Below are positions 5,230 to 8,430 of a DNA stretch of 8,430 bases, in pieces. This stretch comes from a virus (taxonomy: Duplodnaviria > Heunggongvirae > Uroviricota > Caudoviricetes). Every line of letters begins with the position of its first letter. The stretch's first letter is position 1. A model generated the notes under the pieces. That model was given only the letters and a program-made list of their open reading frames with translations, ran no database searches and had not been told where the DNA came from. The translations under genes were made by a program, and so were the position numbers. The stretch covers positions 1 to 8,430 of the IMG/VR virus record IMGVR_UViG_2667527792_000006; one strand, 5' to 3'.

Positions 5230-5661
5230 GATGCCAGCTCCATACCGTAGAGGGCGAGATGAGCGGAAACCAGGCTGCGCGTCACCGTATGTTTGGGGGC
5301 GTTAAACAGCGTTTCTACATCGCCCTGTTCGACAATTTTACCTTGTGACATCACCGCCACGTCATCCGCCAGACGCGCCACAACGCCCATATCATGGGTG
5401 ACCAGCAGCATTCCCGGCGCTTGTTTTTGCATAATGCTTTCCAGCAGATCGAGGATGCGCGCCTGTGCTACCACGTCGAGGTCGGTGGTCGGTTCATCGG
5501 CGATGATAAACGGTGATTCACACAGCACCGCCATCGCAATCATCATGCGCTGCAACATGCCGCCGCTCATCTCGAACGGGTACAGCTTCAGCACGCGCGC
5601 GGCGTTTTCCAGCCCCACCGCTTCTATGGCAGCGGTAAGCGTAGCGTCATCGGCGGGTTTC
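5226..5661 (-). CDS. nikD: NikD nickel ABC transporter ATPase, C-terminal ~145 aa (5'-truncated, Walker A missing)
   Basis: ...[64 protein letters not shown]...[10 protein letters not shown] with ABC signature and Walker B motifs. Match stops near 5660. Confidence 0.85.
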
Positions 5662-5964
5662 CTGACGTTTCACCCGGTACACACTGTCACCGCAGACCAC
5701 CTCATAATCAGCGGTGATCCCCCGGCGGTAGCGAATGGTGATGTAATGGGTGATGGCGTCCCCGGTCTGCGCGGTTTCCTGCCAGGTGGTGGCACTGGTC
5801 TGGATAACCTTCGCCCATGTCCGGAACGTAACCGGGTATTGAGACTCCACGCCAAAGTTGTCCGCGGGCATATCCACCCGCTGGCGGATCAGGACGCGTT
5901 TATTCAGTTCACCGGGGTCCGGCAGAATGTAGGTTGCGCTGGTCTGCGCCTGACGAATTTTCAT
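5647..5964 (-). CDS. Phage head-tail adaptor / head-closure protein (putative); native C-terminus lost, last 3-4 codons and the stop come from nikD-derived sequence
   Basis: 105-aa ORF immediately downstream of the connector gene with an ATGA overlap (5961-5964). Size and position are typical of HK97 gp7-like adaptors. Family call is by position and size, not a verified motif. Confidence 0.5.
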
Positions 5965-6284
5965 TGCGGAAAGTACCTGTACGGGCCGACAAGCCAGCCA
6001 AAACTCTGCGGCATGTCGAGTTTCTCCACTTCCGTAACCGACGAGCGGTTTTCGTAAAAATGGCTGATAAGCATCAGCATCCCCAGACGAATATCATCCG
6101 GCAGGTGCAGCCCGTCCGGATCGCTGTCCGGAATGGTTTCATGCGGTGCATAGAGCTTCCGGTTCAGATACGTTTCCGTCCGCTTTTGTGCCGCACAGGC
6201 CAGCAGTTGCAGATGGCGGTCATCAGTATCGAAATCCTCATCCAGCCGGAGTTGGGCTTTAATCTCTTCCATTGTCAGAAGCAT
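5961..6284 (-). CDS. Phage gp6-like head-tail connector / head completion protein
   Basis: 107 aa, MLLTMEEIKAQLRLDEDFDTDDRHLQLL... resembles the HK97 gp6-like connector family. Tightly packed after the capsid gene and the small ORF. Confidence 0.65.
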   Translation of the reverse strand: MLLTMEEIKAQLRLDEDFDTDDRHLQLLACAAQKRTETYLNRKLYAPHETIPDSDPDGLHLPDDIRLGMLMLISHFYENRSSVTEVEKLDMPQSFGWLVGPYRYFPQ

Positions 6285-6286
6285 GC

Positions 6287-6487
6287 TCAGCCCTCTTTAC
6301 TGGTCGTGGCTTTTTTCTCTTTTGCCGCTTTACTGCTTTTTGCACTGATTCCGCGCTCTGCTAACCCGGCCTGAAGTGCAATCTCCTGCACACGGGCAGG
6401 AAGCGCCCCGTCGTCATACTCACCGGCCCGAATGACCTCAACACGCATACCGTCCGGTGACCATTTCAGATCTTGTTTCAGGATCAT
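6287..6487 (-). CDS. Hypothetical 66-aa protein inside the head module, with a Lys/Ala/Ser-rich C-terminal tail
   Basis: ATG at 6485-6487; stop 2 nt before the connector ATG. Same strand and tight packing as the flanking structural genes. No recognisable family. Confidence 0.4.
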   Translation of the reverse strand: MILKQDLKWSPDGMRVEVIRAGEYDDGALPARVQEIALQAGLAERGISAKSSKAAKEKKATTSKEG

Positions 6488-6510
6488 GATTCTTCACCCG
6501 TCAGAACAGG

Positions 6511-6528
6511 GGGCGCGGTTCCGCGCCC
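6511..6528 (-). other. GC-rich hairpin (GGGCGCGG-TT-CCGCGCCC) between the capsid stop and the 66-aa ORF start
   Basis: Seen directly: 8-bp GC-only arms (effectively a 7-bp stem with a 4-nt loop) within the 47-nt intergenic gap on the transcribed strand. No U-tract follows, so not a classic intrinsic terminator. Confidence 0.4.
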
Positions 6529-6536
6529 ATGAATGA

Positions 6537-7742
6537 TTACGCCGCTGCAATCTTCAGCAGTTTGATGGCCTGCGAATCGACCAGCATGCCGCCGGTGCGC
6601 TTGGTGGTATAAAAACCGACAAATGGTTTATTGGTGTACGGATCACGCAGAATGCGGGTACCGATACGGTCAACGATGGTGTAACCCCGCTTGAAGTTAC
6701 CAAATGCAATAGCTTTCGCATCAGCGGCGATATCCGGCATCTGTTCGTTTTCAGCGATACCGTAACCCGCCAGAGAGGACGGTTGCCCCAGCTCCAGCCC
6801 CGGACGCCACAGATAGTTACCCTCGGTGTCTTTCAACAGACGGATGGCAAACAGGCTGTTGTTGTTCATCATGAACTTCGCGCCAGTGCGGTGTGCCTTA
6901 CGCAGCGTGTAAATCAGTTTGATAATGGCGTCTGCGGTCACCGTCGTCGCTTCACCGGATACAATATGCTGAAGTTTACCGAACGCACGAACCTTATCGG
7001 TTTCATCGGTGGATTCATACGCCAGGAACCCTTTTGGCTTCTTGGTGCCATCACCGGTGGTAAAGGCAATTTCTTCCTGTTCAGCAAATTCGGTCGCCAG
7101 CTCGCTGTTGATCCAGGCCTCCACGTTGAAGAAGGCATCATCCAGCATTTTCTGAGTGGCCTGCGGGTTACCGTAGATTTCCCCCATGAAAGGTTCAATC
7201 AGCCCCAGTTTTGAGGTGGCAGTCTGGGAGCGCGCGTCAGTCTCGCCCACCCATCCGGAAGCCGTGCCGCCCAGATTCACCAGTTTTTTGTAGTCGGAAC
7301 CGCCAACAGTGATCACCGTGGCTTCCTGGCGCATCACCACTTCATCTTTCAGCAGGGTGAGAATGTTGCGATCCAGTGCTTCCGGCACGGCATAGCCACC
7401 GTCTTCATCGGTGCCCACCTGTAATGCCTTGCGCTCCAGATCGCGCAGACCGTCTTCACGGCCTTTACGCAGAAAGCCCACAAACGCTTCTTTATGCTCA
7501 GTGGCCAGTTTATTTTGCACACCACCTGCCGGACGTTTCAGCTCAAGCAGCTCTTTTTCAAGGTCGCTTTTGAGATTTTCCAGCTCGCTGAGTTTCCCGT
7601 TCAGGGTTTCCACCTGCCCGGCAAGTTTGCCTTTTTCCTGCTCAATCGCATCCACGCGCTTGTCGTTCTTTGCCTTGAAGTCGTCAAACTTCTGCTGCAG
7701 CTCCTGCGCGACCTGTTCCACATCTTTAATATCAACCGCCAT
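6537..7742 (-). CDS. HK97-fold major capsid protein with N-terminal coiled-coil delta (scaffold) domain
   Basis: 401 aa. First ~70 aa are heptad-like and charged (VEQVAQELQQKFDDFKAKNDKRVDAIEQEKGKLAGQVETLNGKLSELENLKSDLEKELLELK), followed by a capsid-like body. Strong AGGAG Shine-Dalgarno 7 nt upstream of the ATG at 7740-7742. Confidence 0.85.
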   Translation of the reverse strand: MAVDIKDVEQVAQELQQKFDDFKAKNDKRVDAIEQEKGKLAGQVETLNGKLSELENLKSDLEKELLELKRPAGGVQNKLATEHKEAFVGFLRKGREDGLRDLERKALQVGTDEDGGYAVPEALDRNILTLLKDEVVMRQEATVITVGGSDYKKLVNLGGTASGWVGETDARSQTATSKLGLIEPFMGEIYGNPQATQKMLDDAFFNVEAWINSELATEFAEQEEIAFTTGDGTKKPKGFLAYESTDETDKVRAFGKLQHIVSGEATTVTADAIIKLIYTLRKAHRTGAKFMMNNNSLFAIRLLKDTEGNYLWRPGLELGQPSSLAGYGIAENEQMPDIAADAKAIAFGNFKRGYTIVDRIGTRILRDPYTNKPFVGFYTTKRTGGMLVDSQAIKLLKIAAA

Positions 7743-7756
7743 CGTATTTCTCCTGA

Positions 7757-8407
7757 TTAGAAGTTCAGATTTTTCAGTGCATTCAGTGCAGAGCCCACAT
7801 CCTCAGCGTCGCGCAGGGACAGTGCGCCATAGCCCCCGGCCATGAATGCTTTGGCCTGGGTACGGGAGAGTCCGACATCACGCAGGACTCTTTCGATTTT
7901 TTTCTGTTCAGGGATTTCCCCGCGGGCCAGCGCGTTCTTGACGTCGCTGATCCGCGCCTCGTCGTTAGACGGAAACGTCACCAGACTGACTTCCCAGAGG
8001 TCGATTTCTTTCAGCAAAAAGGCTTCTTTCGTCCGGTCGTATTCCCAGTCTTTCAGGACGTACCCAATAGAAAGGCCGGTTAACGAACCGGCCTTCATGT
8101 GTGCATGTGCGCGTTTTGCCAGGGGATCATCATCAATAAGCAACCGTCCCCTGACGTAAAGCCCGACATCGTCTTCCTTCATTTCGGTGTAAACACCGAT
8201 GGGTTCATCCATGCGGTGCTGCCAGAGCAGCGCAGGTAACGCTTTTCTGTCACTCCACGCCCGCAGGGAAGCAGCAAATGCCCCGGACATCACCACATCA
8301 TCGTGGCTGTCCTTTACACCAAAGACGGAGCCATACCCTTCAAACTCACCGGAGTCACTGACAGATTTCAGACTCAGCGGTACATCAAGACGTTGTTTCG
8401 TCTGCAT
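7757..8407 (-). CDS. Prohead maturation protease (HK97 gp4-like, S78 family)
   Basis: 216 aa with the N-terminal pattern EFEGYGSVFGVKDSHDDVVMSGAF typical of phage prohead proteases. Sits directly upstream of the capsid gene with a 14-nt spacer. AAGGA Shine-Dalgarno 8 nt before the ATG at 8405-8407. Confidence 0.75.
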   Translation of the reverse strand: MQTKQRLDVPLSLKSVSDSGEFEGYGSVFGVKDSHDDVVMSGAFAASLRAWSDRKALPALLWQHRMDEPIGVYTEMKEDDVGLYVRGRLLIDDDPLAKRAHAHMKAGSLTGLSIGYVLKDWEYDRTKEAFLLKEIDLWEVSLVTFPSNDEARISDVKNALARGEIPEQKKIERVLRDVGLSRTQAKAFMAGGYGALSLRDAEDVGSALNALKNLNF

Positions 8408-8430
8408 TGGCGTTATCCTTCTGCTTACCG

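Follow-up and report, generated by a model that had tools for sequence, protein, structure and literature searches.

The stretch of DNA analyzed here (hereafter the window) comprises the 8,430 nucleotides (nt) of the IMG/VR virus record IMGVR_UViG_2667527792_000006 and ends in a set of phage head genes. The question that this locus raises is whether these genes come from an ordinary tailed prophage or from a capsid-forming phage-inducible chromosomal island (cf-PICI), a satellite that makes its own small HK97-type capsid and takes its tails from a helper phage. A first-pass annotation, made from the sequence alone, held the two to be indistinguishable; it noted, correctly, that the window itself carries no tail genes, terminase or integrase. 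Comparison with complete genomes and phages does separate them. We assign positions 5662-8430, with a probability of roughly 93%, to a fragment of the late (head morphogenesis) operon of a temperate myovirus prophage of Escherichia coli, of the SfIV/SfII/SfI/ST64B type, that is, of a complete tailed phage and not of a satellite, and attribute the loss of the rest of the operon to the chimeric structure of the contig.

Genes were assigned from a program-made list of open reading frames (ORFs) combined with scans against Pfam and PHROGs. On the minus strand of 5647-8430, five closely packed genes and the end of one more are co-linear, and the phage-derived part spans 5662-8430 (2769 bases). The extent proposed in the first-pass annotation, 5660-8430, thus stands except for its start, and its gene content is extended by a small ORF of 66 amino acids (aa), by the end of the portal gene and by the truncation of the head closure gene. 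In the order of transcription, the features are as follows.

8385-8430, minus strand: last 46 nt of the portal gene, co-linear with the portal coding sequence of the prophage of E. coli APEC O78 (22724-23965 within NC_020163.1 968543-1011311)
7757-8407, minus strand: prohead maturation protease of the HK97 gp4 type (MEROPS S78), 216 aa; PF04586 Peptidase_S78, E = 1.3e-31, 110 bits against a cut-off of 21; phrog_80, E = 3e-77
6537-7742, minus strand: major capsid protein of the HK97 family, 401 aa; PF05065, E = 1e-79, 268 bits, residues 115-398; phrog_10
7422-7742, minus strand: putative delta (scaffolding) region of the capsid protein, residues ~1-107 with a predicted boundary, preceding the Pfam capsid domain; weak coiled-coil match at residues 6-68
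6287-6487, minus strand: 66-aa ORF, hypothetical protein; phrog_1020 (function unknown), E = 2e-44
5961-6284, minus strand: head-tail adaptor Ad1 (gp6-like, the "connector" of the first-pass annotation), 107 aa; PF05135, E = 1e-9; phrog_40, E = 9e-38
5662-5964, minus strand: head closure protein Hc1 (the "adaptor"), phage-derived codons 1-101 of the native 136; PF05521, E = 2e-17; phrog_25
5647-5661, minus strand: chimeric end of Hc1, four foreign codons (ETRR) and a stop, antisense of nikD

The end of the portal gene, which is cut by the contig end, overlaps the start of the protease gene; 14 nt separate the protease from the capsid gene, 49 nt the capsid gene from the 66-aa ORF and 2 nt this ORF from Ad1, and Ad1 and Hc1 overlap by 4 nt. 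The 66-aa ORF, which has no match in the Pfam scan and is labelled hypothetical in APEC O78, is conserved in its position between the capsid gene and Ad1. The chimeric Hc1 ORF (5647-5964) encodes 105 aa, and the native C-terminal 35 codons are gone. The co-linearity and tight packing of protease, capsid, connector and adaptor reported previously are therefore borne out by ORFs, Pfam and PHROGs alike, and the assignment to an HK97-type head module is upheld by the S78 protease, the PF05065 capsid protein and the gene order (portal - protease - capsid - gp6-like adaptor - head closure). In the ORF list, there is no separate scaffold gene between the protease and capsid genes. Scans of 5600-8430 yielded no promoter-like sites and terminator-like sites only at the level expected by chance, and an Rfam scan of the whole window gave zero matches at gathering thresholds. 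As assembled, with Hc1 lacking its last 35 residues and the operon lacking both of its neighbors, the fragment could not make a functional head.

The closest relatives of the segment were sought with megablast among 5426 complete E. coli genomes and, in a separate comparison, among GenBank phages. Eight rows at a reported 100.0% over 5662-8430 represent three distinct genomes, namely APEC O78, WP4-S18-ESBL-08 and one strain present under three accessions. In a local alignment, the APEC O78 prophage (NC_020163.1, about 968-1004 kb) is identical at 2768 of the 2769 positions, the sole difference, at 5860, being silent; accordingly, the proteins are identical for all five genes over the parts present (protease 216/216, capsid 401/401 and Ad1 107/107 among them). 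Among phages, Shigella phage SfIV (NC_022749/KC814930) shows 97.6% nt identity over 2769 bases, with protein identities of 396/401 (98.8%) for the capsid, 215/216 for the protease, 105/107 for Ad1 and 98/101 for Hc1. Two vB_EcoM phages (vB_EcoM-689R6, at 97.5%, and vB_EcoM-720R4), SfI (96.4%) and SfII (96.3%) fall within 96-97.5% nt identity, and Salmonella phage ST64B reaches 91.8% over 89% of the query; the matches of SfIV, SfI, SfII and ST64B cover 89-98% of the query. All members of this group share the order portal, protease, capsid, small ORF, Ad1, Hc1, whereas the window holds only a part of the head module, broken inside Hc1. SfIV carries an O-antigen-modifying gtr cassette, whereas none was seen in the inspected stretch of the APEC O78 prophage, the near-identical counterpart of the window segment.

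The native surroundings of these relatives supply the diagnostic context that the window lacks. In both APEC O78 and SfIV, Hc1 is directly followed by genes for a neck/tail-completion protein, tail terminator, sheath, tube, tail assembly protein and tape measure and, further on, for a DNA circularization protein, baseplate proteins (hub, V, gp46, J/gp47 and YmfQ-type) and tail fibers; contractile tail genes stand directly after Hc1 in every intact relative. Before the protease gene, both have portal, TerL and TerS (P27 family), and APEC O78 also has an HNH endonuclease. The APEC O78 prophage, of ~40 kb, about 36 kb of which lie within the inspected stretch, additionally encodes a holin, lysozyme, Rz-like proteins, the Q antiterminator, RusA, methyltransferases and CI/Cro-type regulators and is a complete lambdoid-regulated prophage; its head module is complete and followed by the tail genes, in contrast to the module in the window, which is cut at both ends. 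SfIV, which encodes an integrase and an excisionase, was obtained by induction of a wild S. flexneri strain, forms plaques and lysogenizes; its virion, with a ~55-nm isometric head and a ~101-nm contractile tail, packages 39.8 kb (PMC3851460).

This linkage of head and tail genes is not peculiar to the closest relatives. At least 80% of the head segment was found in 842 records, or 835 genomes (about 15% of the complete E. coli genomes), and a 5574-bp query extending from the sheath through the neck genes to the protease was covered to at least 80% in 839 records, or 834 genomes. A head segment devoid of neck and sheath genes would cover at most 50% of the longer query, so that in essentially all complete E. 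coli genomes with this segment it forms one contiguous stretch with genes of a contractile tail. The first-pass annotation left open whether tail genes or an abrupt end follow the adaptor; in the native flanks of near-identical relatives it is tail genes, which argues for a prophage and against a satellite.

The case for a cf-PICI starts from the fact that protease, capsid, connector and adaptor form a set common to these satellites (PMC10085698), and the capsid protein in the window is a detectable homologue of the capsid of the prototype cf-PICI EcCIEDL933 (PDB 9GYI; preprint 10.1101/2025.02.11.637232; E = 6e-54). Indeed, the two elements have homologous capsids, and their head and neck genes are of the same types. 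SatelliteFinder, however, describes a cf-PICI by up to 11 core components and treats tail and holin profiles as forbidden (PMC10085698), and the native element, to a copy of which the segment has one mismatch, contains both, with full contractile-tail and lysis modules (holin, lysozyme and Rz-like genes). Instead of a small island with an integrase, an AlpA- or MerR-type regulator and a primase-replicase beside the packaging module, we found an element with ~36 kb inspected, lambdoid regulation, methyltransferases and RusA, in which no alpA or pri-rep gene is annotated over the inspected stretch and the left arm typical of satellites is missing. The capsid protein shares 37% identity over 298 residues with that of EcCIEDL933, as against 98.8% with that of the plaque-forming myovirus SfIV, so that pairwise identity does not group it with cf-PICIs. 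Furthermore, the characterized cf-PICIs use siphovirus tails (HK106, HK022), whereas Ad1 and Hc1 here always stand ahead of a sheath gene. Capsid size offers an indirect comparison, cf-PICI capsids being small enough (T=4, ~47 nm) to shut out a phage-size genome: EcCIEDL933 has a 47.5-nm T=4 capsid (EcCIEDL933 preprint), and SfIV a ~55-nm head that packages 39.8 kb. Membership among cf-PICIs thus fails on every feature that could be tested and, as judged from these sequence comparisons, is refuted for the sequence family; for the segment itself, we consider such an origin extremely improbable.

An origin of the head genes from a domesticated element akin to a gene transfer agent (GTA) is more improbable still. 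It is brought to mind by the closest solved structure, the capsid of the Rhodobacter capsulatus GTA (RcGTA; PDB 6TB9, E = 2e-74, aligned residues 31-400), but this likeness reflects homology at the level of the family only. The high nt identity to SfIV, an inducible phage that forms plaques and lysogenizes, and a native context that amounts to a complete prophage, equipped with genes for regulation, replication and lysis, together with the SfIV integrase and excisionase, all speak against a GTA.

The sequence comparisons with solved capsids also bear on the capsid protein itself. Given its homology to 6TB9 and to the next solved homologue, 9GYI, the protein is predicted to adopt the HK97 fold, and its N-terminal region fits an HK97-style delta domain. 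In the alignment with the capsid protein of EcCIEDL933, residue Q108 falls opposite S93, the first residue of the mature form (EcCIEDL933 preprint), so that the cleavage site is most plausibly L107/Q108. HK97 gp5 is not reached from this protein by phmmer at E<0.01, which places it in a sub-family different from that of HK97 gp5 and nearer to RcGTA and EcCIEDL933. At residues 241-262, the phage capsid aligns gap-free with the 22-residue "connector loop" of EcCIEDL933, with FG-LQ conserved. The loop is described as what chiefly sets the EcCIEDL933 capsid apart from HK97 and as a feature that might determine capsid size (EcCIEDL933 preprint); its gap-free presence in a phage capsid suggests that it characterizes the capsid sub-family and not satellites.

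A boundary of module exchange between phages lies within the 66-aa ORF, at about window positions 6411-6414: the portal-protease-capsid block 6414-8430 recurs at ~97% identity in prophages that have a different Ad1/Hc1 pair and a lambda-like, non-contractile tail (E. coli CUVET18-1475), and phage phi467 matches the same stretch, both matches beginning at 6411-6414. The converse exchange is seen as well, with neck and sheath genes recurring beside other head genes. It is from Ad1 and Hc1, and from the near-complete match of the segment as a whole to the APEC O78 prophage (2768 of 2769 nt), that the segment is assigned to a myovirus.

What appears as the natural end of the element is explained by the contig. 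An exact look-up of the 105-aa chimeric Hc1 showed that the window is the entire 8430-bp contig CDRT01000304.1 of GCA_001373215.1; among about 15 billion proteins, this exact sequence occurs on that one contig only, whereas the native 136-aa form is found on hundreds of contigs. Mapping of the window onto reference loci resolved it into seven fragments.

1-1463: fragment A, accessory island piece (IS91-family end, 83-nt IS66 tnpC fragment, low-GC region with a TfpB-like ORF)
1463-1657: fragment B, internal to chbR
1654-3739: fragment C, 3' end of cusA and 5' part of pheP
3739-4355: fragment D, 3' end of yhiI and 5' end of rbbA
4353-5143: fragment E, internal to glmS
5144-5662: fragment F, 5' part of nikE and 3' part of nikD
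5662-8430: fragment G, prophage piece
5661/5662, no strand: nikD/Hc1 junction, 1-nt overlap of fragments F and G, zero inserted bases

The six junctions (1463, 1654-1657, 3739, 4353-4355, 5143/5144 and 5661/5662) have overlaps of 1, 4, 1, 3, 0 and 1 nt, respectively; no bases are inserted at any of them, and all breakpoints lie within genes. In K-12, the loci of the chromosomal pieces are ~10 kb to >3 Mb apart and in mixed orientation, and no single place in any of the complete E. coli genomes covers more than 33% of the window. An independent Logan contig contains fragment A uninterrupted, at 100% identity, and runs natively past 1463. The nikD-Hc1 junction was not found in the 5426 complete genomes, a 40-nt exact pattern of the junction gave zero matches in GTDB representative genomes, JGI metagenomes and IMG/VR, and the chimeric ORF that contains glmS, looked up exactly from one chosen start codon, gave no match. 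By a wide margin, the likeliest cause of the chimera is an artefact of the assembly or the library. Two further assignments were tried and abandoned: an origin by restriction and ligation (cloning or chromosome conformation capture, 3C) is unsupported, the junctions, inspected by eye, having neither a shared site such as GATC nor a linker; and fragment D is not ybhF, given that K-12 ybhGF does not match whereas yhiI/rbbA does. Because the nikD junction is one of six chimeric joins, it is uninformative on where the element naturally ends.

The alternative to an artefact is that the Hc1-nikD junction records a real rearrangement, in which a decayed prophage remnant, cut in its head closure gene, became fused to nikD. 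Cryptic, truncated prophages of this group do exist, e14 of K-12 being one; the annotation of the APEC O78 prophage uses names of e14 genes (ymfR, ymfL, YmfQ-family, pinE), which suggests that e14 is a decayed member of the group. The contig is, moreover, a deposited assembly record. However, the same contig contains five more joins of the same kind (at chbR, cusA-pheP, yhiI-rbbA, glmS and nikED), all internal to genes, and glmS, a conditionally essential gene, is broken at both ends; no such adjacency occurs in the complete genomes, and the junction and the chimeric ORF are found nowhere else in the collections searched. We therefore regard this rearrangement as very unlikely. Slightly less probable again is that all six joins are real and that the sample contained a DNA molecule in which illegitimate end joining, at little or no microhomology, had strung together chromosome pieces of 0.2-2.8 kb, this prophage head fragment among them; the molecule might be an extrachromosomal or an inserted product of repair after massive breakage. 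Taken as a whole, a real rearranged molecule of any kind retains only a few percent of the probability, and even then the phage genes would still be ordinary and the junctions alone would be of interest.

Several considerations weigh against the assignment of the segment to a complete myovirus prophage truncated by a chimeric contig. The tail genes and the intactness of the prophage of the source strain itself are judged from its relatives. Lambdoid prophages whose tails are non-contractile have the portal-protease-capsid block as well, at 97% identity, so that capsid genes by themselves leave the type of tail unfixed. The artefact is deduced from an implausible genome structure and from the uniqueness of the contig, not from reads, and both the probable cleavage site of the delta domain and the T number are predicted by homology.

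If the assignment to a temperate myovirus is accepted, the likely course of head assembly can be outlined; the gene families and their order are observed, and the steps are extrapolated from the HK97 paradigm. The window shares with HK97 the order of portal (gp3), protease (gp4) and capsid gene (gp5, with its delta domain), as well as a protease of family S78 and a PF05065 capsid protein in which a putative scaffolding region at the N-terminus takes the place of a scaffold gene, and the native phage has the HNH/TerS/TerL packaging set upstream as in HK97; the relatives of the window differ from HK97 in that their tail is contractile and not of the siphovirus type. Late transcription would come in from upstream, given that no promoter-like site was detected inside the segment. 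The portal would nucleate the procapsid, in which the 401-aa capsid protein and the protease would co-assemble, with the ~107-residue N-terminal region of the capsid protein probably acting as the scaffold, as no separate scaffold gene is present. The S78 serine protease would then cut off the delta region, probably near L107/Q108, and DNA would be packaged by the HNH/TerS/TerL proteins of the native phage, encoded upstream and outside the window. Finally, Ad1 would bind the portal, Hc1 would close the head, and the neck protein and tail terminator would couple the closed head to a separately assembled contractile tail.

Some observations concern the surroundings of the prophage and the other fragments of the contig. 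In APEC O78, a gene for a TrlF-family AAA-like ATPase adjoins the tail-fiber/invertase end of the prophage (NC_020163.1 968543-1011311). At the opposite end of the window, positions 299-1462 have a low GC content (32-39%) and include an ORF for a 163-aa membrane protein (720-1211, minus strand), for which a match to PF27470 TfpB is precomputed. This region borders on an IS91-family end (1 to about 220) and the IS66 tnpC fragment (83 nt, 216-298), has no megablast match among the complete E. coli genomes and was found in two other short contigs only, CCCB01000908.1 of the draft assembly GCA_000945835.1 and the Logan contig ERR738824_443; it is a rare accessory island. The nikE/nikD fragment (5144-5662) is 100% identical to the chicken isolate GPEC1405. 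Given this match and the single mismatch of the prophage fragment to APEC O78, which is an avian strain, an avian-associated E. coli lineage may have supplied the source strain or the strains that fed the chimera.

The segment is already known, being a textbook HK97-type head module of common and well-characterized temperate enterobacterial myoviruses, and as an ordinary head module it carries little biological weight. Given that the contig is a mosaic, any finding based on adjacency, anywhere in the window, is suspect. The apparent abrupt end after the adaptor mimics the tail-less signature of a cf-PICI, yet arises from a chimeric draft contig, and programs that call satellites and prophages on draft assemblies could be misled by chimeric contigs of this kind.

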